A stretch of 64,000 bases of DNA from positions 372,001 to 436,000 of the forward strand of contig CAUYUJ010000270.1 of the NCBI GenBank assembly GCA_963575745.1. The letters are read 5' to 3'. Below, one piece after another: positions 11,841 through 46,196 of this stretch (position 1 is its first letter; every line of letters begins with the position of its first letter). The notes under the pieces are model-generated. The model searched no databases, was not told where the DNA came from, and saw only the letters and a program-made list of their open reading frames with translations. This DNA comes from Prorocentrum cordatum. Lineage: Eukaryota. The position numbers and the translations under genes were made by a program.

Positions 11841-13844
11841 CCGCGCGGACGAAGACGAGGTCGGAATCACGACCCTCCCCAATGCAAGCTACTCGTCGGA
11901 ATTGCGATGTTCATACACTCGGCCTCCTTCCTGCTGCGCTGTTGCACAGGCAGGGTGGCGGGATCTGCCGCAGACAGCTGGACGCCGGAACCGCGTCTCG
12001 ACATCACGCGACTCATAGCAGGCAGCAGCAACTGAAACGCCGGCCTGGGGTCACACTACAGAGGGGGAGTACTCATCCTTCTTTCGCCGCCAGGAACGCT
12101 GTTACCGCCCACCTCTTAGAGAGAACGGGAAGGGGTCCTCCATTCATAATCGGGGGATTCCATTAACTGACAAGGAAAGTCACCAGCAAGGCAGAACTGG
12201 CACCGCCACTTGGGCGAATTAGCTCCCAGGTGGCATCGTGTACGGAAGCAGGCGCTGGAATCCACAGAAAAATAGGTTGACCAACTCCACAATCAAATCG
12301 TTGGGAGCCCGTGTTGAAAACCACTTCGAAAAATATCAACTCGAGGGTCCATATTTTGACAAGTTGGAGGAAGAGGAGGAGGGAGGAAGAGGAGAAGGAG
12401 GAGGAGGACGAAGAGGAGGAGACGGAGGACGACGACGAGGGGGAGCAGGAGGGGAAAGAGAAACCCCAACATCCAGCGGCCCGATTGTTTCATAGCTGGG
12501 CACCCAGACCTCTCGGACCCATCCACAGCGCCGGTTTTGATTACCACAAACTGTTTCTGACTGGTCCCGGCCCGAAGCTGGTCCCCAGATGCTCAACACG
12601 GCGAAAACGGGCCGCCCCGATTGTGTACGAGCCGCCGCATGCCTCCCCGCGCATCACTCGTCGACCGCAGCCCACTGGCAGCCGCCCCGATGGCCGCCGA
12701 AGGCCGCCGAGGGCCGCTGGCTGCAGTTCCCTAGGGCCTAGGGCCGCTCGCTCGCTGGCCGCCGAGGGCCGCCAAGGTTCGGAGACAACTGCTGGGAGGT
12801 CTTCGCGAAAACGAAAGAGCCAAGATCTACTAAGCCTAAGGCCGAAGGCCCATTTCAAGGGCCCGCGATTAGGCCAGACTGAACTGGGATGTGGCCGGAC
12901 AGAGCCAAACAAAGCGGGACTCTGCCGCATTAGGCCTGGCCTGAACCACGCATGTACCCGCGCCGCAACCGAATCAAACCTCCCAAGAAGCGCATGTCAA
13001 CTCCTGGCCCCCCCTCAGCCTCTGCAGGCCCCCACGCGGCGTGCCGCGGTCGCCGCCACCGCCGGGGACGCCGACGCCTCCGGGCTCGTGGGGGATTCGC
13101 TGGCCGCTGCCGCTGTGTCGTCGTCGTCGTCATCGTCCGCGCCGGCGCCGCTGGTGTCGCCACCGTTGTCGCCGTCGTGCTCGGCCTCAGCCTCGTCATC
13201 GTCGCCGTCGTCGTTGTCATCGCGGGCAAGGCACTCGAAGACGCCAGGTGTCTAGAACCTACCCCCTCGTTCCTCGTCTCCTCTTCCTCCTCCTGCACGA
13301 TTGCACAATAGAAATACTACTCTCCTCTCCCCTGATGACGTCCGGAAGATGTCTGGCCCCCTCTCCGCGTACTGTTTTTTTGCACACATGATTCGAGGGA
13401 AATGGGTCTTCGCTTGGGCTCGTTTTCAAAAAATGGTTCCCGCTGAAGCGCTGGCCCCATCTCTGCGCCTCTGGTTGTTCCATATCGTGTTCCCGCTGCA
13501 GCGCCGGCGTTTTCGGTCCTTCCAGATAGGCCCCAAAATCTAGAAGATGCACCCCGAAAAAAACCATCGGATGTGAATGCACAGTCGGTTTCGATTCGTT
13601 GATTTCTTGGGCCGCGAAAGCCCCTCGGCGTCATCGCTTTCAAGAAATATCAAGCGAGAGCCCCATTTCTGCTTTGAGAAGGCGATGTTGGAAGCAGAGC
13701 CAGCATGTACTCTCCATCAACCCCGCCTTGTGTGAAACTTTCCGGGGGGCCCAATGAGCTAAACATGGATCAACGGTTCGAGACCAGCCCAGACCTCTCG
13801 AAGACGATCGACTTACCCTCCAAGGTACCTGGCGCAATGCCAGG

Positions 13845-14102
13845 TGTAAATAATGATCCAAATCTCTCCACCCACAACCTCTTGATGCAAGAAGAAGACA
13901 GGCAGGTGATAGGATATCTTATACCGAATGAAACTCTGCGTTCGATAGGTGCGTCCACCCTCCCGCCTCAGTTGGGCGGGTTCACGAGCCACAAATGGCA
14001 ATAGTAAACAAGAGAGCGCAAGCATGATCGAGCGAAAGCAAGAACATATATAATTCTAAACATCATCATATAACTCACATCCTTGCTAAAATAACTTTCA
14101 CA
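13845..14102 (-). repeat. 3' LTR (~258 bp)
   Basis: Direct repeat of 22717-22972; about 18 substitutions and one 2-bp indel by manual count; the right end could extend to 14104. Confidence 0.95.
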
Positions 14103-14164
14103 CAGGAAAAGGAAACGTTGCTAAATAATGCCTTGGCAAATTCTGCAGCAATCCTCCAGAATAT

Positions 14165-14555
14165 TGAATAATAGTATTGGCTCGAACGATCAAACTATCG
14201 TCCGTGCAACAAGCAACAGATGACAAATAAAAGAAATCCAATACTCTCTGCTCGAACGGTCAAACTACCGTCCGTGTATCAAACAAAAGATACCAAGATA
14301 AAAGAAATCAGTACACCGAGCAACAGATACTAAGATGCCAGAAACCCACGCACTGAGCAACATATAATCAAATCTTTACCTGGCCTGCGCACCGAGCAAC
14401 ATATATTAAGCTATGAAATCTTTACCTGAGCTCTTGAGGGGGGGGGCCTTCACTCCTCATCTGCAGATGGTGACCAAACATCACTCATCATCTGAAATGG
14501 TAACCCAAATCGCTCATCATCTGAGAATGATAACTCAAATCACTGATCATCCTCA
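14165..14555. repeat. Short tandem repeats in the element's 3' UTR
   Basis: CTCGAACG(A/G)TCAAACTA(T/C)CGTCCGTG x2 (14181, 14252); GAGCAACA x3; ~30-bp CTCATCATCTGAAATGGTAACCCAAATC x3-4 (14450-14553). Confidence 0.8.
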
Positions 14556-16080
14556 GCGCACACGTACTGCTGACTTGATGATGCTGTATGCAATGTAAAC
14601 CTTGATGATCGGGTCGAGACTATAACTCCTGCTTTCGTCTGCGTCCAGCTTGAGACACCGTCCTAGGCAATTTGCGTAGTGCCTGTCCTTCGTATAGATC
14701 GTCTCATAGCTGTCGCCCTCGTACCTGAAACTCCTGATTATCGTCGGTCCCATGGTCTCCAGCCACTGTCTCAGTAGAGCACTATCTCCCAGCATGATTG
14801 GTCCATCTCCCATGATATCGTCGTCATAGGTCGCTGGATCGGCTCGTACTGCGAGTGTTGTCGTTGTAGTTTTCGGCGAAACCTTCGCCGTCCTGGATTT
14901 GACCTTGACCTGCTTCTCGGGCAACTCCGGCTTGAACAGGTTGTCGCTGCTTGAACGATCCACCTCCATCGGGTCAAACATGTCCTCGTCGTCGTCCTGC
15001 TTAGGCTTCATTACGTAAATAAATATGATGATACCCGCGATGATAGAGACTACGGTCACCACCGCAGGAGACATCGAACGACAAACTCCATGCACTGCAA
15101 GTGCACAAAGTTGAAGCATAACTACAGCTTGGTCAGGTATCTGGATGGTTCTCTGTGCGCCACTCCTCTCCATCAGGTAGTCGTCCGTTAGCTCTTCCGC
15201 GTAGAATGCCTCGACGTAGTCCTCGTCTTGAACCTCGTCCTTATTGTCGTAGAAGCACTCGTCCACGTAGTTGTACGTCTCCACCGGCCACGTAGAGATC
15301 TCTTCGTCGCCCTTCCCAGTGTAGTCGCACAGCTCCTTCTTGACGTACTTGGCAATCTTCGCGTTCAGCTCGTCTACCTCCTTGTTGGCTGCTACCTTCT
15401 CTGGTCCAACAAGCTTTCGTCCACGTATAGATGGTGCCCTGTCATCATGCCCAAGAGTCCACAGGTTCGATGCAACTATCTTCCTCGCGTAGCCTCCTGG
15501 AAGTACTTTCGTCAAACAGTCCGCTAGCATCTGCTCGCTCTTGACCCACTTGATGCCGACCTCTTTGAGTGACTGCCGCAATATAGCCGCTTCCAAAGAA
15601 AGCCTCCTGTCCGTCATAGAAAACTTTTCCTTTGCGATCGCGTCGCATAGGCTCTTGCAGTCGGTCACCGAAATGCATTTCACCGGGCAGGTGTCGTGCA
15701 CAATCTCGGCCATGTCCATCTCCGGGTACAGGATCTCCGCCAGGGTCGATCTTGTCCATATTAACATGTCCACATAATCCGCACATGAGTAGGCCTCCGC
15801 CGATAGAGTAGATCGCACCACTCGTTGAATCTTGGAAGACAGCCACCCAACGCAGTGTACCTTGTACTTGTTACTGTGGTCCTCGTTGATCTCCTGGTCG
15901 CCCAGCATGATGAAGTGTCCGCGTTGTGATCTGTGCTTCGGCAGATTGTCGAAAGCACTGTCGGTGACATTGATCACCATGGTCTCCCACAGGTTCAGGC
16001 CTGCTGAGAACCTGATCAGCAAGTCGTTCCGCTTCTGTATCCGCCTGATGGCCGCTCGCCTGCCCTTTCCTCGCGTGCTT
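14553..16080 (-). CDS. Copia RNase H with in-frame ~315 aa C-terminal extension containing a transmembrane helix
   Basis: VTDSAF, SQRG, RVVRSTLSAE, TDCKSL, DRRL, QMLADCLTK; the frame stays open to 14553; VVTVVSIIAGIIIFIYVM at 15009-15062. Confidence 0.85.
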
Positions 16081-16084
16081 GACC

Positions 16085-16830
16085 TCGCCAAAGTCGATCT
16101 CCTTCTGCAGGTCCTTCATGATCTTGGCGCCCTCCGGGTCGTCCTGCTTGATGCCCATGAGGAAGTCATCCACGCGCAGGCACATGATCCCAATGATCGT
16201 GCCCTCCGCATTGCGCTTGATGAAGGTCGCGGGCTCGAAGCTCAGGCCTTCCCATCCAAGCTTCACGAGCGTCTCGCGTAGTGCCACCTACCACGCGCGA
16301 GCTGCATCGTTGGTCCCGTAGATGCTCTTGTTTAACTTCAGCAGGTCGCCTGCCTTCACTCCTGGGATGTTGCACTTCCCGAGGTTCGTCGGGATGCGAA
16401 GGTAGAGCTCGCGTGCGATGGCTTCGCCTTGCAGAAAGGCTCCCTTCACATCCGCGATGACTAGGTCTAAGTTGAGGCTTGATACGACGCTGCACAAGAG
16501 TAACGTCATCTGCGCTGAGACTGTAGGTGAGTCCCTTCGTAGCTCGTCGCCAAACTCCTCCTCGTAGCCCCTCCCACATATCCTGGCCTTCGGCTCGAAG
16601 GTCGTGGGGCCCTTATCGGTCCAGACCACCTTGGAGCTTAGGATCTTGTCCGGGTCGACCTTGTCGACTGCTGCCCCTGATATGTGGGTTGCTGCATCGC
16701 ACTTGCACCACGTGCCCCATTCCTTCTCCACCGCCTGCTGCATCTTCTTCCACTTGAGCTTGTCATCGCCCAGCGTCTTCAAGTTGATCTCCCGATGCTC
16801 GTTGGCTCTCGTCGGTTGGCTGCACATCCG
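16085..16830 (-). pseudogene. pol: Copia-type reverse transcriptase, interrupted and C-terminally deleted
   Basis: KARICGRGY, DSPT, ADVKGAFLQG, LNKSIYGTNDAARAW*, RVDDF; ends abruptly after DFGEVK. Confidence 0.92.
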
Positions 16831-18029
16831 CTCGGCCGCGAACGCCTCGACGACCAGCGGTGTATCTGCCAGCTGCTTGACTGGCCCAGTTTGTGCTCGG
16901 GCTCGTTTGATGCTGATCGGCACCTCGTCCAGCAAGAACTCCTTGATCGTGACTGGGTGTTCCTGGCGCTTGCCCTGTGCAGGCTGTCGCGTACTTGACG
17001 ATGATGTAGCCGGCTGATCTTGCGGTACCTCTGCTGGTGCTGCTGCCGTTTCCTCCGCCTTCTGGCGTTCCTCCGTGCGCCTCTGGATCCTGGCAGGTAC
17101 TCGAAGCTGAGCTCGACCGTCCTGAGCGTCGTCCCGCTTGGTCTGCTTGAGCTTCAGGCCCTTCTTGGCGTGCTTCTTGCCTCCGCGCTTCACCTCCTTA
17201 GGTTCCTCCATGGTCTCGTCCGCGTTGGTGGACTCCTGCGGGGCTGCTGCAGGCTGTTGGCCACCTCCTGGTCCATCTCCAGCTTCCTCTTCCTTTCCCA
17301 GAGTGATCTCCTCGATGGGCGTGATGGGGTCTTGTGATACCACACCGTCGATGATCTGAGGATTGGCTATCCAGTCCACTCTCGAGATATCTTGAACCAG
17401 GTCGCGCGTGTCCAAGTTGAAAAGCCGCCGCCTCTCGATCTTGTACCCAGGCGTTGGATCAGGTAGAAGAGGGGCGTTCCTGACGTTATCCAGCTGCCTC
17501 AGGTCGGTCTTGCCCTGGCTGCTGGCCGCCACTGCTCCCGAGATGGTGTCCCAAGCTTGGTGCGCTCGAACAAGTCGTGCTCGTAGATCTTCCTCCGCTT
17601 GATCTTGATCAGCCGGTGCTGTCTCGTACTCGTCGTCCAGCCTCTGACGCATTGGCATCACGTCGTTATCGCGTACCACTTCCGATCGTCGCTTCCTGCT
17701 GTCCGCTGGCTTCGTCAGCTCCACGTTGCCTTGAGCAGGTGCTGCTGGTGCCGTCGTCGGTGCACTCGAGGGCGAATCACCTTGTCCTCCTGCTGGCTGT
17801 GGTGGAACATCGCCCTGTCCAGGATGCTGCTGATGTCCTGGATCTCGGTGATCTTGATGTTGATCTGGCTGCTGATATGGCCGTTGATCGGGCTGCTGGT
17901 CTGGTTGTTGATCATCTCGTGCTGGGTTATACTGTTGACCTCGAAGATCCAGAAAACCACGCTGACCAACTCTTCCACGTGCAGGTCCGCCATCTGAAAA
18001 CAGGTCGGTAAACTGCATGGTGCTCACCT

Positions 18030-19060
18030 CGTGCTCAGTCGCCCTTCGAAGGAGACTGGGTGAACTCAGGATCGGGATCCGGTTATGGATCAGCCAATAA
18101 CCGTGCTCATCTTTGCCCAGGCACCGGGCAGGTCCATGCCACCGTGCATGCAGGTTGCGCTTTAGGTTATCAGATCGCCAAAACATCAGTAAAGCACCTT
18201 GCTGAAATGGCCCTGGTTGGGGCCTCGTCCTCGCCAGAACTGTCCGTCTCAATGCTGATGAGTTTGCTGCCTTGAAAGAAGATTCCAAACAGATCTGTTG
18301 AAGGTGTAGTCGGTTCAGAATGATGTATTCTCGGCCACTCGTGAAACCACTGCTGGGTCGTTGTCGGGATTCGCCAAACTTGCAGGCAGTCGGTGTCCAG
18401 CCCCAAGTGCCCATTGCAGTGGTGAGAAGCCTGCCGTGCTGACAAGTTGATTGCACGCGCTGGCCATGCCACGTACTGCTGCTGCAACCGAATCTTGACC
18501 ACGAGCGCCCCCAGCGTTGAAGACACTCGTCGCCATCTCCTTCAGGTATCGCATCTTCCTCTCGACTTTGCCCATTTTCCAGCGAGCCTCTGGAGCCGCA
18601 TTGTTGATCACAATGCCCAGGTCGTTGCATGGCGTCTCGAACTCGCCCATAAAGGTAGAGTCCTGGTCCTGCTCCACGATGCGCGGTGGCCCGGCCCAGG
18701 TAAGCCATCCGAGTTCGAAAGCCTTCTTTGCTAACTCTGCCGTAGGTCTCGATCCGGGACACGCGCGGATCGCCACGGTGAAGTCCGACGCCACGTCCAC
18801 GATCACAAGCACCACGTGCATGTTCTTGTCCAGGTCGGGTATGATCATAAAGTCCATGCTGATGGCTTCGTTAAAGTCCTTAACCATAGGCTGAGCTGCC
18901 GTAGGTCTCGCTGCCGTCCGAGCCTGTTCTTCGCATGTCGTGCATCTGAAGAGACGTGCTGCTTGCACCGCTCGTCGGCTAGCTCCACCATGCTGTAGAT
19001 ACCGTACCAGTGACTCCTTGTAGGGTCCATGTGAATGGCTCTCGTGTGTCTCCTTGATAG
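18030..19060 (-). pseudogene. Integrase (HHCC + DDE + C-terminal W.GP module)
   Basis: HESHSH...RCTTC; ISMDF, EQDQD, GKVERK; frameshift near 18320; WHGPARCLG downstream. Confidence 0.9.
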
Positions 19061-19269
19061 CTGCTCGCATGAGTGGTGGCACCGCCATCCATCCCGACAT
19101 CTCGATGTTCTCGCCATGCTTGCTGAAGATCGTCGCCACGCTAGCGTGCATCGGCGCCTCCGTCTCCGCAGGGTTGGCCTCGAACTCGTCACAGTTGATG
19201 TCGTCGAAGTTGTTGGCGTACCGGGCGCAGCCACCATGCTGCTTCTCGAGGCCCCGCTGATCCTCGACG

Positions 19270-19890
19270 CCGTCCAAGGTCGTCTTGGCCAGCTCCTTGG
19301 TCCAGTTCCCAAGGCTCGATGCTGTTCCCTTCGGCCTGTTGATCACGCTCGTGTGCACGTGCTGCTCGTCACACCTGATGTTGTTGGGCTTCTTGCCGAG
19401 CATGGTGGCCGTCGTCAGGCACCTCGTCGGCTTCTTGACCGGGATCGCCTATGAAGTCCACCAGGTTGCTGCCCTCGGCGCACTGGTGCATCATCGCGCT
19501 TACGAACTCTGAGCCCAGCCATGGCATAAGCTGCCAGGCTCTTGACGTCAATGGGTTCTCCAGTAGCACATGAGCTCCTCGGCGCTTGCAGTTGAGCCAG
19601 ATTTTCTTCACAAGCTGCAGGTGCTTCATGCCGATCGCCAACTTGTGCATCTTCGCGCCCCTTGGGAACATGTGGGACATGTTCGTGAACGGGTCGCCGG
19701 GGAAACCCACAATGGTCACGTAGGGGTCATCCTCGTTCAGCTGCTTCAGGACGGTCTTCTGCGACTTTGCGCCCAGAGAGTCGTCCCCGATCAGGGTGCC
19801 CCTCGGCCTCGTCACTGGATGCCGCCGCTGCTGAGCTTCTGATGTGGCTGTCATGCCACCTGCGTAGAGCTCGAAGATGATGGGCCGCTT
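19270..19890 (-). pseudogene. Compact C5 cytosine DNA methyltransferase-like domain inside pol
   Basis: IFELYAG (motif I-like, ~19858-19880), VGFPGDPF (motif IV-like, Cys to Gly at 19696-19698), LLENP (motif VI-like, 19552-19566), HQC, VKKPT and SLGNWTKELA (motif X-like, ~19290-19316). Confidence 0.75.
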
Positions 19891-20079
19891 CTCCTCTGGG
19901 TCCGCCTTCAGTGTGTCCACGATGTGCTGGGACTGGTCCAGCTTGTCCTGAATCTCCTTCTCCCACGTCTCGATCTGCTCCCTCTGCTTCCGCCGTAGGA
20001 TGCCCCTATCGATCTCCTGGGCCTCCGCATTCCAGATGTCGATCTCGTCGGACGTTACTGATGGCTCGATCTTTGTCGT

Positions 20080-20480
20080 CTCTTTCTTCGGCCACTCCTT
20101 GAGCGAGATCGTCAGGTGTCCCTTCTCCGTCTTGTTGAGAGGCACTCCGTACTTGTTGATCGCCTTGAAGTCCGCCTTCAGATCCTTGATGTATATCGCT
20201 GTGTCGAGCTCCTCCAGCTGGTGGATGCTCAGCAGTATTGGCGTCTTCGACTTCGGCAACCTCTGGAAGCGTAGGTTCACGTCAGCTCCAGCAAGTCCAG
20301 CCGTCACCTCTTGTTCTCCTTCTGCCATGACCGGGGCGCTATCGTTCACGCCTCGGAAGCGCATGGATGATCCTCTCATCCGCGTGGTGACTCTGCCGTC
20401 CTCCGTGCAGCCGTCCAGTGATATTGAACCTCCTCATCCACGTAGGCACGCAGTGTCCAGTGCAGCATGTCGATCTGGAA
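20080..20480 (-). pseudogene. Retropepsin-like aspartic protease
   Basis: AALDTAC (Asp at 20455-20457); after a frameshift, FRGVN, TPILLS and GHL.I.L. Confidence 0.7.
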
Positions 20481-21228
20481 TAGGTCCTTTTCGCACTGCG
20501 TAGGCTTCGATTTCTTCCAGCTCCTCGCCAGGCTGCTGCCGCCCAACTCCCTCTGGAGCGTAGTTGGTTCCAGCTCGGCGTTGCGTCCACAACCATGTCG
20601 GTCGTACTCCAATCGGTAGGCGCTCGCAAGTACTCCTTACGACGCCACGAAGCTCCGAGGTCCTGTCCCAGGCAGCTTGGCATAGATCGTAGGCCATATC
20701 CCTGAGACCGATCGGTTCCATCTCCATGGCGATGTGCATTAGCTGCTGGAAACGATGTAGGGCCCAGTCCAAACATGAATCCATATAGTCCCTGTAGGCG
20801 GCTTCCATGTTCTCGCAGCTTACCCACAATGCTGCGATCTGCTCTGCACGTTCTCGTATCTTTTGTAGGTCGGTCTCTGTGTTGTCATCTTCTAGGTAGT
20901 CTGTACTTGGTCTGCTGGGATCCGTCCTCGACCACGTCCCTGGTGTAGGTAGGTCTGCTCGCTGAGCTCACTGGAGTGCTCAGGGGTTCGCCAGACTCTT
21001 GTGTTTGATGCTCTCCAGGTACCGGGTATGGTTCGCGTGCCTGGTCGATCCTCTCTTGGAAGTTCGGCTGGTCTCCTGCTGCTGATACCGCGTAGGTGTT
21101 CACGATCTGCTCCTCGGCGTCGATTCTCACCTTCGTCAGACTCGTGATCTCCTCCATCGCCACGTCTATGCTTGCCAGCTGGTCGCTGACAATCTGCATG
21201 GCGGTCACGTCCATCGAGCTGTCCGCCA

Positions 21229-22668
21229 TCAGCAGCTTGACCGCGGTCGCCATTGCGAATCCAGCTCGTCGTAGAAAACCTCCAGGTCGTCCGTGACAGC
21301 TTCGTCCTCCACGTCCGCCTCCTCGTCCTCCACGCTGTAGCGCACTGGATCCACTCGCTGGTGACCTTGTCTTTTCGCAACGGGGTCACCCTTCCAGCGG
21401 CCCTTCTTGCGGCACGCGTTGCACTTCGTGCGCGCCTTGATTTGCTTCAGCTTATCCTCGGCCTCTTTGCTGTCCATCTTGATGGAGCCCTGCTTGTTGA
21501 TGTTGGCCTTCCAAGCTCTATTCGACTTGCTCTGAGCAAGCCGCTCCCGGGCCCGCTTGTAGTTGGGCTTGTGGTTGCGCCGTCCAGCTTTCCAGCCAAG
21601 ACGTTGAGCCTCCGTCGCCAGGGTGTCGCACTCCTCCTGGCTGATGTCGTCCGGGTCTACGTCATCAATCACTCCCTCGAACTCGTCGATGTCCGCTGCA
21701 AGTGCGTCGTAGTCCTCATCACTCGGGAAAACGTCTTCATCGCGCGGTGAACGTTCATCTCCGAGTAGAGCTTCATCCTCTTCGTCGTCGTAGTCCACCG
21801 GGTAGGCTCCGCATCGTCCATGTCCACGATCATCTCGGCCTGTGCTGTCCAGCTGCATCAGCACGGCTGCCGTCACGTCGTCCCAGATGCATTCGTTGTT
21901 GCATTGGCCAAGGATTGCCTTATGCTCTTGCATGCTGGTGTTCGCTAATTTCAATAGAAAGTATGTCCGTAGGTCCTCGCTGGCTGTCGTGTTCGTTGAG
22001 AGTGACTTGAGCCGCTCGTACTCCGTCTCTCGTCTCGATATGTAGTCCTGCACAGACTCCGTTCGATTGCGAAAACCTCGGAAGAAATACTCCTCGAACG
22101 CTTGCTGCTGCTGTAGTGGTGCGATCCTTTCGCACGCGTGTCGTACTGTAGTTACCACTAGTTTGACTGCAGCAAGTGGGTCATTACCTGCTTCGTCCAA
22201 AACTGCTTGCGCACTGATCTCAGACTTCTTTCGCGCGAGCGTCCACGCCCGTCCATTCAGAGAATTCTTGAGCTTGATCGCATAGAGTTTCTTGATATTC
22301 TCCTCGCTCGCGCGGTAGCCGAGTATCGCACGCTCCTCGAACTCCTCTCCGTAGGATGGTTCGCCGTTGTAGTGCACCACGCCCTCTTTGTCCACGAAGA
22401 GGGGGCCGTCATTGAACTGCTGCTGCTGCCTGGACGTCATCTTAATGACAGTGATGCTACTGAGCTTGTTACCGATGTAGTAGCTGTCTAGATTGTTGCT
22501 GTAGTTCTGCTGCTCGCCCGGGATGTTGTTGATATCTCGATCTCCGTCCAAATTGTTGTAGGTAATGGTTTTGAGCGTTTTGTCGATCACCGTGATCTGT
22601 TGATGCGCGCGGTGGTTAAGCACCGCGAAGATGCAATTGAGCGCCAGCATATATGTCTGCAAGGCCAC
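21229..22668 (-). CDS. gag: Gag-like protein with degenerate CCHC zinc knuckle
   Basis: 479-aa ORF just after the PBS; R..ESVQDYI motif; CNACRKKGRWKGDP at ~21383-21424 (His to Arg, frameshift before the last Cys); true start may be MTSRQQ at ~22440. Confidence 0.8.
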   Translation of the reverse strand: MALQTYMLALNCIFAVLNHRAHQQITVIDKTLKTITYNNLDGDRDINNIPGEQQNYSNNLDSYYIGNKLSSITVIKMTSRQQQQFNDGPLFVDKEGVVHYNGEPSYGEEFEERAILGYRASEENIKKLYAIKLKNSLNGRAWTLARKKSEISAQAVLDEAGNDPLAAVKLVVTTVRHACERIAPLQQQQAFEEYFFRGFRNRTESVQDYISRRETEYERLKSLSTNTTASEDLRTYFLLKLANTSMQEHKAILGQCNNECIWDDVTAAVLMQLDSTGRDDRGHGRCGAYPVDYDDEEDEALLGDERSPRDEDVFPSDEDYDALAADIDEFEGVIDDVDPDDISQEECDTLATEAQRLGWKAGRRNHKPNYKRARERLAQSKSNRAWKANINKQGSIKMDSKEAEDKLKQIKARTKCNACRKKGRWKGDPVAKRQGHQRVDPVRYSVEDEEADVEDEAVTDDLEVFYDELDSQWRPRSSC

Positions 22669-22702
22669 TCTGTATGTAATCCTCGTACCGTGGACTGATT
22701 CA

Positions 22703-22715
22703 GCTCACGCTACCA
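22703..22715 (-). promoter_or_regulatory. Primer binding site, probably tRNA-iMet
   Basis: TGGTAGCGTGAGC starts 1 nt inside the 5' LTR; TGGTAGC matches the start of known iMet-type PBS; tRNA identity is inferred. Confidence 0.7.
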
Positions 22716-22716
22716 G

Positions 22717-22972
22717 TGTAAATAATGATCCAAATCTCCCCGCCCACAACCTCTTGATGCAAGAAGAAGACCGGCATATGATAGGATATCTTATACCGAA
22801 TCAAACCCTGCGTTCGATAGGCGCGCCCACCCTCCCGCCTCAGCTGGGCGGGTTCAAGCCACAAATGGCAATAGTAAACAAGAGAGTGCAAGCATGAGCG
22901 AGCGAGAGCAATGACATATATAATTCTAAACATCATCCTATAACTCACATCCTTGCTAATATAACTTTAACA
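22717..22972 (-). repeat. 5' LTR (~256 bp)
   Basis: Reads TGTTAAAG...TTTACA on the minus strand and is followed by the PBS; the right end could extend to 22974. Confidence 0.95.
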
Positions 22973-23269
22973 CATGGCATGCTGTGCAGTGTTGCGTTCT
23001 GCGTCGCTGTGCGATGCCACGCTTTGGCTTGCAATGCTTTGAGATGAAATGCTTCACTGCGCAATGCCACGCCATGCTATGACATGCTACGCTTTGCCGT
23101 GCTCTTCTACGCCATGCCATGTTGTGCTCTACCATGCATCGCGTACCTTCTCGCGATCATTGCCCTGCTCGACATCCGACTGTGCCACGCGGGAGGGAAT
23201 CTACGCCATGATAAGCGATGGGAGGGAGGGGTAGGACGTAAGATATGACGCGAGCGCACCTAGTTTGGC

Positions 23270-46159: not shown

Positions 46160-46196
46160 CTCGAACCAAAATGGCTTGAGCCAAGATGGCAACGGA
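46160..46196 (-). other. Genomic dinoflagellate spliced leader followed directly by a relic leader
   Basis: TCCGTTGCCATCTTGGCTCAAG (46196-46175; 20/22 to DCCGTAGCCATTTTGGCTCAAG), then CCATTTTGGTTCGAG (46174-46160; 13/15 to relic CCATTTTGGCTCAAG). Confidence 0.9.

Follow-up and report, generated by a model that had tools for sequence, protein, structure and literature searches.

A conserved C-terminal Pol extension carrying a pair of hydrophobic helices in a Ty1/copia-order retrotransposon of Prorocentrum cordatum

The window analysed here is a stretch of 64,000 nucleotides (nt) from the dinoflagellate Prorocentrum cordatum (assembly GCA_963575745.1, contig CAUYUJ010000270.1, positions 372,001 to 436,000 of the forward strand). 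It contains a 9.1-kb long terminal repeat (LTR) retrotransposon on the minus strand, in which pol continues in frame far beyond the ribonuclease H (RNase H) domain. Copia elements are the textbook example of env-less, intracellular retroelements, and their Pol ends with RNase H. The additional C-terminal part, hereafter the tail, is real coding sequence, lies inside the element and is found across the family. It represents a conserved C-terminal Pol module of a dinoflagellate family with Ty1/copia gene order. The reading that we favour, with about even confidence, is that this module would insert as a hairpin and tether Pol, or the released tail, to an endomembrane. In the literature searched, subscription journals excepted, we found no account of a copia Pol whose C-terminus is formed by a conserved membrane hairpin.

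The minus-strand open reading frame (ORF) at 14553-16091 encodes a product of 512 amino acids (aa), P0001, which comprises RNase H and the tail. RNase H ends in LADCLTK (residues 189-195, 15507-15527, minus strand), and the frame then remains open for another 317 codons (14556-15506) until the TGA at 14553-14555, as an earlier note on this DNA had described from the letters alone. When the bases of these 951 nt were shuffled 20,000 times, no shuffle was open to this extent, and the analytic probability of such an event is 1.5e-7. The remaining five frames of the same stretch contain 5-23 stops; a gene on the plus strand was rejected because the plus frames hold stops in this range (5-23). Canonical copia pol ends some 20 residues past the ADxLTK motif, and we take the first ~19 residues past LTK (VLPGGYARKIVASNLWTLG, residues 196-214) to resemble such an ordinary end, as seen in copia and Tnt1. 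The true extension is therefore ~298 residues long. The parts of the product are as follows, with mean identities referring to the relatives described below.

15507-15974, minus strand: RNase H core, recognised in the sequence by its copia-type motifs, ending in LADCLTK
15450-15506, minus strand: probable ordinary copia pol end VLPGGYARKIVASNLWTLG, residues 196-214; 60% mean identity in 17 relatives
15336-15449, minus strand: junction motif and linker, residues 215-252; 54% mean identity in 19 relatives, including the most distant
15132-15335, minus strand: acidic Tyr-rich spacer, residues 253-320; 49% mean identity in 16 relatives
15075-15131, minus strand: hydrophobic helix H1, residues 321-339; mean hydropathy 1.58, AlphaFold2 helix (model residues 26-44), conserved in alignment A8
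15009-15068, minus strand: hydrophobic helix H2, residues 342-361; mean hydropathy 2.79, AlphaFold2 helix (model residues 47-66)
14796-15008, minus strand: post-membrane spacer, residues 362-432, modelled disordered; 59% mean identity in 15 relatives (alignments A2, A8)
14556-14795, minus strand: helical end domain, residues 433-512; 65% mean identity in 8 relatives (alignments A4-A6)
14553-14555, minus strand: TGA stop closing pol and tail, at a position common to 6 of the 9 relatives that reach the last helix

A Pfam scan of P0001 as a whole matched no family. The features that the earlier note had picked out by eye were all recovered. The acidic, Tyr-rich stretch (residues 253-312) holds 20 D/E and 7 Y per 60 residues; the moderately hydrophobic stretch AVVMLQLCALAVHGVCRSM has a Kyte-Doolittle 19-residue mean of 1.58; the strongly hydrophobic helix AVVTVVSIIAGIIIFIYVM (residues 343-361) reaches a mean of 2.79 and is directly followed by KPK; and the terminal domain contains RSFRYEGDSYETIYTKDRHYA (residues 453-473). 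The two helices are separated by S-P (15069-15074). In the junction, the family consensus reads (WTL)GPDDRAPSxRGRKL...EKV..NKEVD.LN, with H in place of P in the window copy. The post-membrane spacer consists, in order, of KPK, an acidic run, the conserved patch PMEVDSSSSDN and a K/T-rich stretch, and the end domain carries the motif S-G-K-Y-E-G...Y...D..YA..LGRC, which the window copy reads as SFRYEG.

Composition by codon position also marks the tail as coding. In three of its four segments GC at the third position (GC3) is 0.65-0.71 against 0.31-0.42 at the second (GC2), the exception being the H1-H2 segment with a GC3 of 0.44. The pattern matches that of gag, integrase (IN), reverse transcriptase (RT) and RNase H, in which GC3 is 0.68-0.87. 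In the 3' untranslated region (UTR) and the LTR, GC is flat across codon positions at 0.37-0.47 (0.41-0.43 in the 3' UTR). Since the 3' LTR lies 448 nt beyond the tail stop, the tail belongs to the element, and a run-on of the frame into host DNA is ruled out by the same LTR.

Relatives of the tail are numerous. With only the tail as query, a full HMMER scan covering 1.84 billion representative proteins gave 38 matches at E<=1e-3, among them 17 at <=1e-10 and 5 at <=1e-30. The 38 relatives are fragments of 54-367 aa with identities of 30-89%. A profile search with the end region returned 17 matches, of which 11 were new; 13 of the 17 carry the EukProt label of a Pyramimonas data set, a label that is unconfirmed. 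Mapped by BLAST, the matches tile residues 196-512 with overlaps. None of the relatives stops right after RNase H: all 16 that span K195 run on in frame for at least 48 residues, within a set that was found with the tail as query and is thereby biased to tail-bearing copies, so that tail-less copies could not appear in it. In the large protein search, the length classes of 281-896 and 897-2560 aa held no match to the tail and no full-length polyprotein carrying it. Searches of JGI metagenome contigs and IMG/VR returned no tail-related locus, and the ESM Atlas search produced no usable match to the tail.

Mean identity to the window is 62% in the RNase H core (11 relatives) and 52% in H1-H2 (9 relatives). 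With means of 49-65% across its segments, the tail roughly equals the RNase H core in conservation and, judged by identity, in constraint. Length differences among relatives preserve the frame, as exemplified by a 9-residue gap in four of them. The end point is likewise shared: six of the nine relatives that extend as far as the last helix terminate where the window does, one stops five residues earlier, one three later, and one reads on. Sequencing runs provide a nucleotide-level counterpart. Contigs of four runs (records 2, 13, 20, 27) cross the RNase H/tail junction without a gap, three contigs of run X1 cease to resemble the window precisely at 14553, and among the best 12 of 33 indels in run contigs 11 fall in the LTR or UTR and only 1 in the tail. 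Parts of 14304-14555 are uncovered in runs X2 and X5, and 14556-14723 is uncovered in X5, gaps that carry no weight as evidence. Taken at the sequence level, these patterns identify the tail as a family feature rather than a read-through.

The copy in the window is a dead member of this family that has drifted from the family consensus. Two lesions interrupt its RT.

16288-16290, minus strand: in-frame TAG inside RT (…AARAW*VALRETL…)
between 16055 and 16056, minus strand: 275-bp deletion in RT, private to the window copy

The 275 extra letters are carried at 16055/16056 by a 2,532-nt contig of run X2, and contigs of runs X1, X5 and X6 break off there with loose ends. By frame arithmetic, adding 275 bases would join the RT frame (16287 down to 16056) with that of RNase H and the tail. 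The integrase frame differs from those of its neighbours, and the main frame is also stopped at 21229, 20434 and 19369. Private changes have hit family-conserved residues within the tail as well, namely H215 for P, SFRYEG for SGKYEG and R338 for L.

The mean hydropathy of H2 is reached by only one in 5,000 residue shuffles of the tail. In the AlphaFold2 model of alignment A8, residues 321-339 and 342-361 form helices with a 2-residue break at S-P; the helix block has a pLDDT of 69-92 (up to 92 in H2) in a model whose overall mean is 60.8. Because the alignments that set all fragments against the complete tail (A1, A7) contain misaligned stretches, two sub-regions were folded rather than the whole. 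The consensus of A8 reads PMERSGAQRTIQIPDQ - xVVMxQxCALAxHGVC - LSMSP - TxVTxVSIIAGIIMFIY - RMQPKQxDDED - PMEVDSSSSDN, and its loop LSMSP is uncharged. Among nine relatives aligned over part of residues 322-361, eight have a hydropathy peak of at least 1.55. The distant relatives P0026, P0028 and P0034 each possess two hydrophobic segments, with peaks of 1.44-2.66 and sequences unrelated to that of the window, and distant P0027 has one long hydrophobic segment. As a property, the pair is conserved among close and distant relatives alike, even with a complete change of sequence.

In every lineage the last hydrophobic segment gives way at once to 1-4 basic residues (KPK, RMQPK, RCALGCIRTPKR, RQR, KK, SRDK), and the number of hydrophobic segments is even in four of five lineages. 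We read the topology by the positive-inside rule. Because there are two segments, with basic residues right behind the last one, the pattern suggests that both flanks of the tail stay cytosolic.

In the searches made, the end domain matched no known family or fold at a significant level. AlphaFold2 applied to the end region (alignment A5, 11 sequences) gave a mean pLDDT of 59, with helices over model residues 63-140 (block pLDDT 62-80) and residues 372-426 modelled as disordered. The motif G-K-(H/Y)-x-G-x-(S/T)-(F/Y)...D..Y...L persists even in P0026, P0032 and P0034. Pfam PF20600 (ExoX-like_C), the short C-terminal domain of exodeoxyribonuclease X-like proteins, was scanned against 11 relatives and the window end piece. 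Three of these 12 sequences gave matches (P0032, E 0.0027; P0015, E 0.061; P0006, E 6), the best scoring 17.5 bits (P0032) against a gathering cut-off of 26.5 bits; none of the 12 reaches the cut-off, and the window end piece gives no match. The likeness lies in the end-domain core G-K-H/Y-x-G-x-S/T-F/Y...D-P-x-Y, which is hit at the same place in these three, whereas the tail end domain is longer, is modelled as all-helical and has no nuclease attached. Searched against the PDB with Foldseek, the end-domain model retrieved nothing at E<=0.001; in a wide VIA-align search its best Z was 4.2, in the noise range for helical models. A PDB sequence search with P0001 alone found nothing meaningful. 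Designed helical repeat proteins, the only PDB sequence matches to the profile of A4, were taken as chance.

Under the favoured reading, H1 and H2 would insert as a hairpin, either two-pass or re-entrant, into an endomembrane, probably the endoplasmic reticulum (ER) or the nuclear envelope. The RT-RNase H side and the end domain would both remain cytosolic. The tail could then tether Gag-Pol, or a tail fragment released by the protease, to the membrane where particles assemble, and the end domain would act as an adaptor for a putative partner. An estimated ~1,900 residues of polyprotein precede the tail, and a hairpin with both ends in the cytosol fits because these residues are made there. 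In the accessible text of a study on yeast Ty1, particle assembly is linked to the ER (PMC3945221). A membrane module fused to Pol, if true, would shift where in the cell the element replicates. It also raises the question of whether membrane tethering of Gag-Pol aids assembly or nuclear entry in cells whose nuclear envelope never breaks down.

Several observations weigh against this interpretation. The relatives are all short fragments (54-367 aa), with no intact full-length member seen among them. Within the alignment, P0022 lacks a hydrophobic peak, and P0023, P0029, P0036 and P0039 have none within their fragments. H1 is only moderately hydrophobic, and a 2-residue turn is very tight, so that H1 could instead lie on the membrane surface, placing the end domain on the far side. 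The acidic run DDDED behind KPK blurs the charge rule. Measured against single-base neighbours as expectation, apolar replacements are only in weak excess, with 20 of 31 distinct replacements in H2 (68 of 125 expected) and 14 of 29 in H1 (42 of 103 expected). The searches of Pfam, PDB sequences and structures yielded no significant family or fold match for the end domain. Finally, among the best 40 of 393 variant places, the best-supported differences that set the window apart from all four runs alter the protein in 9 of 10 cases in the tail and in 5 of 8 in RNase H. The tail changes being mostly non-synonymous, the window copy is not under selection, which speaks of decay of this copy and not of the family.

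A different role is possible for the same membrane segments. The tail may be an accessory membrane protein that has Gag, not RT, as its working partner and is made apart from Pol. Functionally it would then be a gene of the env position, though not one of that kind; we regard this as rather unlikely. Its route would be either protease cleavage at the GPDDRAPS junction or a spliced or internally deleted gag-tail RNA. The idea is prompted by P0034, a 367-aa protein derived from a 1,676-nt NCBI record, which begins with a gag zinc-knuckle region aligning to window Gag residues 402-447 (37% identity, E 4e-9). It then continues from the point equivalent to LPGxYAR, just past LTK, through the junction motif and two hydrophobic segments to the GKHxG end domain, and has no protease, IN, RT or RNase H core. 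The junction motif is, moreover, the best-conserved piece in distant relatives. However, P0034 is a single sequence of a distant lineage and may be a transcript or genomic, a splice product or a deletion derivative. In the window family the tail shares the RNase H frame and lacks its own start. We know of no cleavage site at the junction. A broader variant, which we consider clearly unlikely, is that the lineage has built its own membrane module in the env position, a hairpin with an adaptor that is unrelated to any env and is attached either to the end of Pol or, as in P0034, to Gag, with assembly bound to membranes. If true, budding into membranes or transfer across them would become possible, for instance at the nuclear envelope where mitosis is closed, or between gametes as they fuse, and the element would represent an independent step from retrotransposon towards virus.

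Position and hydropathy could also be taken to indicate an env-like protein or a small fusogen of the FAST/sORF2 type, with H2 as a single span, H1 as a fusion patch and particles passing between cells. The tail does lie 3' of pol, in the env position, its strong membrane helix has a second hydrophobic patch alongside, and the sORF2 of the insect MDG1 group offers a precedent in the accessible part of its description (bioRxiv 10.1101/2025.03.14.642691). We nevertheless find such a fusogen very unlikely, given that the tail is in frame with pol and lacks its own start, a signal peptide or a myristoylation site. Its 317 residues include no N-x-S/T sequon and only 6 Cys. Behind the membrane helix there are two Lys, then 7 acidic residues among the next 10, and no polybasic patch. 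The hydrophobic pair is preceded by ~145 residues and followed by 151, compared with a total of 100-200 for FAST/sORF2 proteins; the host is a unicellular alga, and PDB searches gave no viral or solved fusion-protein match. Least probable of all, to the point of being hardly credible, is a functionless passenger, either captured from the host or left as a fossil read-through, with a frame that has stayed open by luck. The dead state of the window copy with its mostly non-synonymous private changes, the weak replacement-pattern test of the helices and the lack, to our knowledge, of a known function for the tail all agree with it. Yet even relatives with only about 30-35% identity have the tail open and conserved, its conservation is on a par with that of RNase H, its stop position is shared, indels keep the frame, the codon-position GC bias is kept, and the hydrophobic segments persist despite a complete change of sequence.

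The element that hosts the tail can be delimited by its LTRs, and its parts are listed here in the minus-strand order.

22717-22974, minus strand: 5' LTR, a direct repeat with 13845-14104
22704-22715, minus strand: primer-binding-site-like TGGTAGCGTGAG, one base past the 5' LTR
21232-22704, minus strand: gag, with the zinc-knuckle-like CNACRKKGRW
19372-20433, minus strand: extra ORF between the protease-like LDTAC and integrase (ELYAGGM ... FPGDPF ... LLENP)
18318-19448, minus strand: integrase, Pfam rve at E 5.5e-4 (20.6 bits, under the cut-off of 32.6)
16291-18870, minus strand: low-complexity linker and N-terminal half of RT, Pfam RVT_2 at E 9.6e-7 over residues 742-860
14105-14552, minus strand: 3' UTR of 448 nt between the pol stop and the 3' LTR, with flat codon-position GC
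13845-14104, minus strand: 3' LTR of 260 bp, TG...CA, a direct repeat with 22717-22974

The LTRs read TGTGTG...TTTACA on the minus strand and are identical at 244 of 262 aligned positions (93%). We take TGGTAGCGTGAG to resemble a tRNA 3' end; its junction with the 5' LTR recurs as loose contig ends in sequencing runs X2 and X6. A protease-like LDTAC follows gag, giving the order gag, protease-like, extra ORF, integrase, RT, RNase H and tail. Integrase lies upstream of RT, which defines the Ty1/copia order. The rve and RVT_2 matches are both below the Pfam gathering scores, in a broken copy. RVT_2 scores 29.1 bits against a cut-off of 31.6 and covers profile positions 14-130 of 244, the match being partial because the TAG and the 275-bp deletion cut RT. 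No target-site duplication was found, as the 5 bases outside the LTRs differ (CCAGG vs TGGCA); the flanks may have mutated.

Some further features of the element and its surroundings were recorded. In the extra ORF (19372-20433) we recognised by eye what we take to be motifs I, IV and VI of a cytosine-C5 methyltransferase, without the catalytic Cys. In Pfam this ORF has only a sub-threshold match to Thymidylat_synt (E 7.7e-5, 22.4 bits vs 24.3), and the PDB sequence search gave no match to it. The linker between integrase and RT (16900-18870, minus strand) consists of ~650 open codons of low-complexity, Q/P/D/E-rich sequence with an unusual codon-position pattern (GC1 0.68, GC3 0.54). Directly past the pol stop, the 3' UTR contains a 30-nt tandem repeat (14450-14551; 3.4 copies, 83% matches). 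Further on, at 14178-14282 (minus strand), there are two 8-bp hairpins with an identical AGUUUG loop, 70 nt apart, each at ~-11.6 kcal/mol (z ~-2.9), in which one base pair is swapped on both sides (G-C vs A-U). An Rfam scan of 13700-23200 returned 0 matches. At the left flank, contigs of runs X1, X5 and X6 track the window to 13842 and then switch to TGACATGCTGTGCGG, which resembles the window sequence just outside the other LTR, TGGCATGCTGTGCAG (13800-13844 vs 22975-22990); this looks like the empty site of the insertion or of a repeated flank. Elsewhere in the window, at 46175-46195 (minus strand), lies CCGTTGCCATCTTGGCTCAAG, a relic resembling the dinoflagellate spliced leader. It differs from the spliced-leader 21-mer by 2 mismatches, with 0.01 chance matches expected, and may mark a retroposed gene.

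Comparison with known membrane proteins of retroelements sets the tail apart from each of them. The earlier note had proposed a membrane anchor or an env-like cargo. None of the outcomes that it had listed as refuting turned up in the relatives, a set biased to tail-bearing copies. The anchor half of this proposal gains from the conserved hydrophobic pair and the AlphaFold2 helices; the env-like half finds no support, as there is no sequon, 6 Cys, no own start or signal peptide, and no large domain before the membrane segment. A retroviral or Sirevirus env is a separate ORF or a spliced product with its own start and signal peptide, but past the junction the tail shows no hydrophobic N-terminal segment. 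In place of a glycosylated, Cys-rich ectodomain, the stretch before the helices is acidic and of low complexity. A classical env is thus unsupported, the tail being an in-frame fusion with 0 sequons, 6 Cys and neither a start nor a signal peptide of its own. Tail-anchored proteins carry their only membrane helix no more than about 30-40 residues from the C-terminus; here 151 residues follow H2, which places the tail outside that class.

Closer parallels exist in the extra genes of other LTR retrotransposons. In plants (Sirevirus SIRE1, Athila, Bagy2), env-like ORFs with predicted membrane segments are located 3' of pol, according to the accessible text of PMC7264820. Like these ORFs, the tail represents additional coding sequence between pol proper and the 3' LTR that includes predicted membrane segments. 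The plant ORFs, as far as that text describes them, are separate and some are spliced, whereas the tail continues the RNase H frame. It also differs from them in having no signal peptide, no sequons and no large ectodomain, and both of its flanks are probably cytosolic. The sORF2 of the insect MDG1 group is a small FAST-like membrane protein that transfers capsids between cells (bioRxiv 10.1101/2025.03.14.642691, accessible part). Both cases involve an env-less retrotransposon that encodes a small membrane-inserted module, a predicted one in the case of the tail, with a hydrophobic patch beside a membrane helix. In that account, however, sORF2 is a separate small ORF of a Ty3/gypsy element, with one helix that is backed by a polybasic patch, and it is often N-myristoylated; the tail has two helices and an acidic rear flank, is fused to a copia Pol and occurs in a unicellular host. 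Instead of the single central helix of a FAST/sORF2 protein of ~100-200 residues, there are two helices in a 317-residue tail, and the place of the polybasic patch is taken by KPKQDDDEDMFD in the window and RMQPKQxDDED in relatives.

Within dinoflagellates, the SmTCL copia elements of Symbiodinium are described, in the accessible text of PMC5776459, with IN, RT, RNase H and LTRs only; in that text the word 'transmembrane' occurs 0 times and 'envelope' once, as a figure-legend abbreviation for retroviral env. Compared with canonical Ty1/copia elements, the window element shares the TG...CA LTRs, the primer-binding-site-like sequence, the order of gag, protease, integrase, RT and RNase H, and a match to RVT_2 (below the gathering score), and differs from them in adding ~298 conserved residues with a hydrophobic, putatively membrane-inserting hairpin and an end domain.

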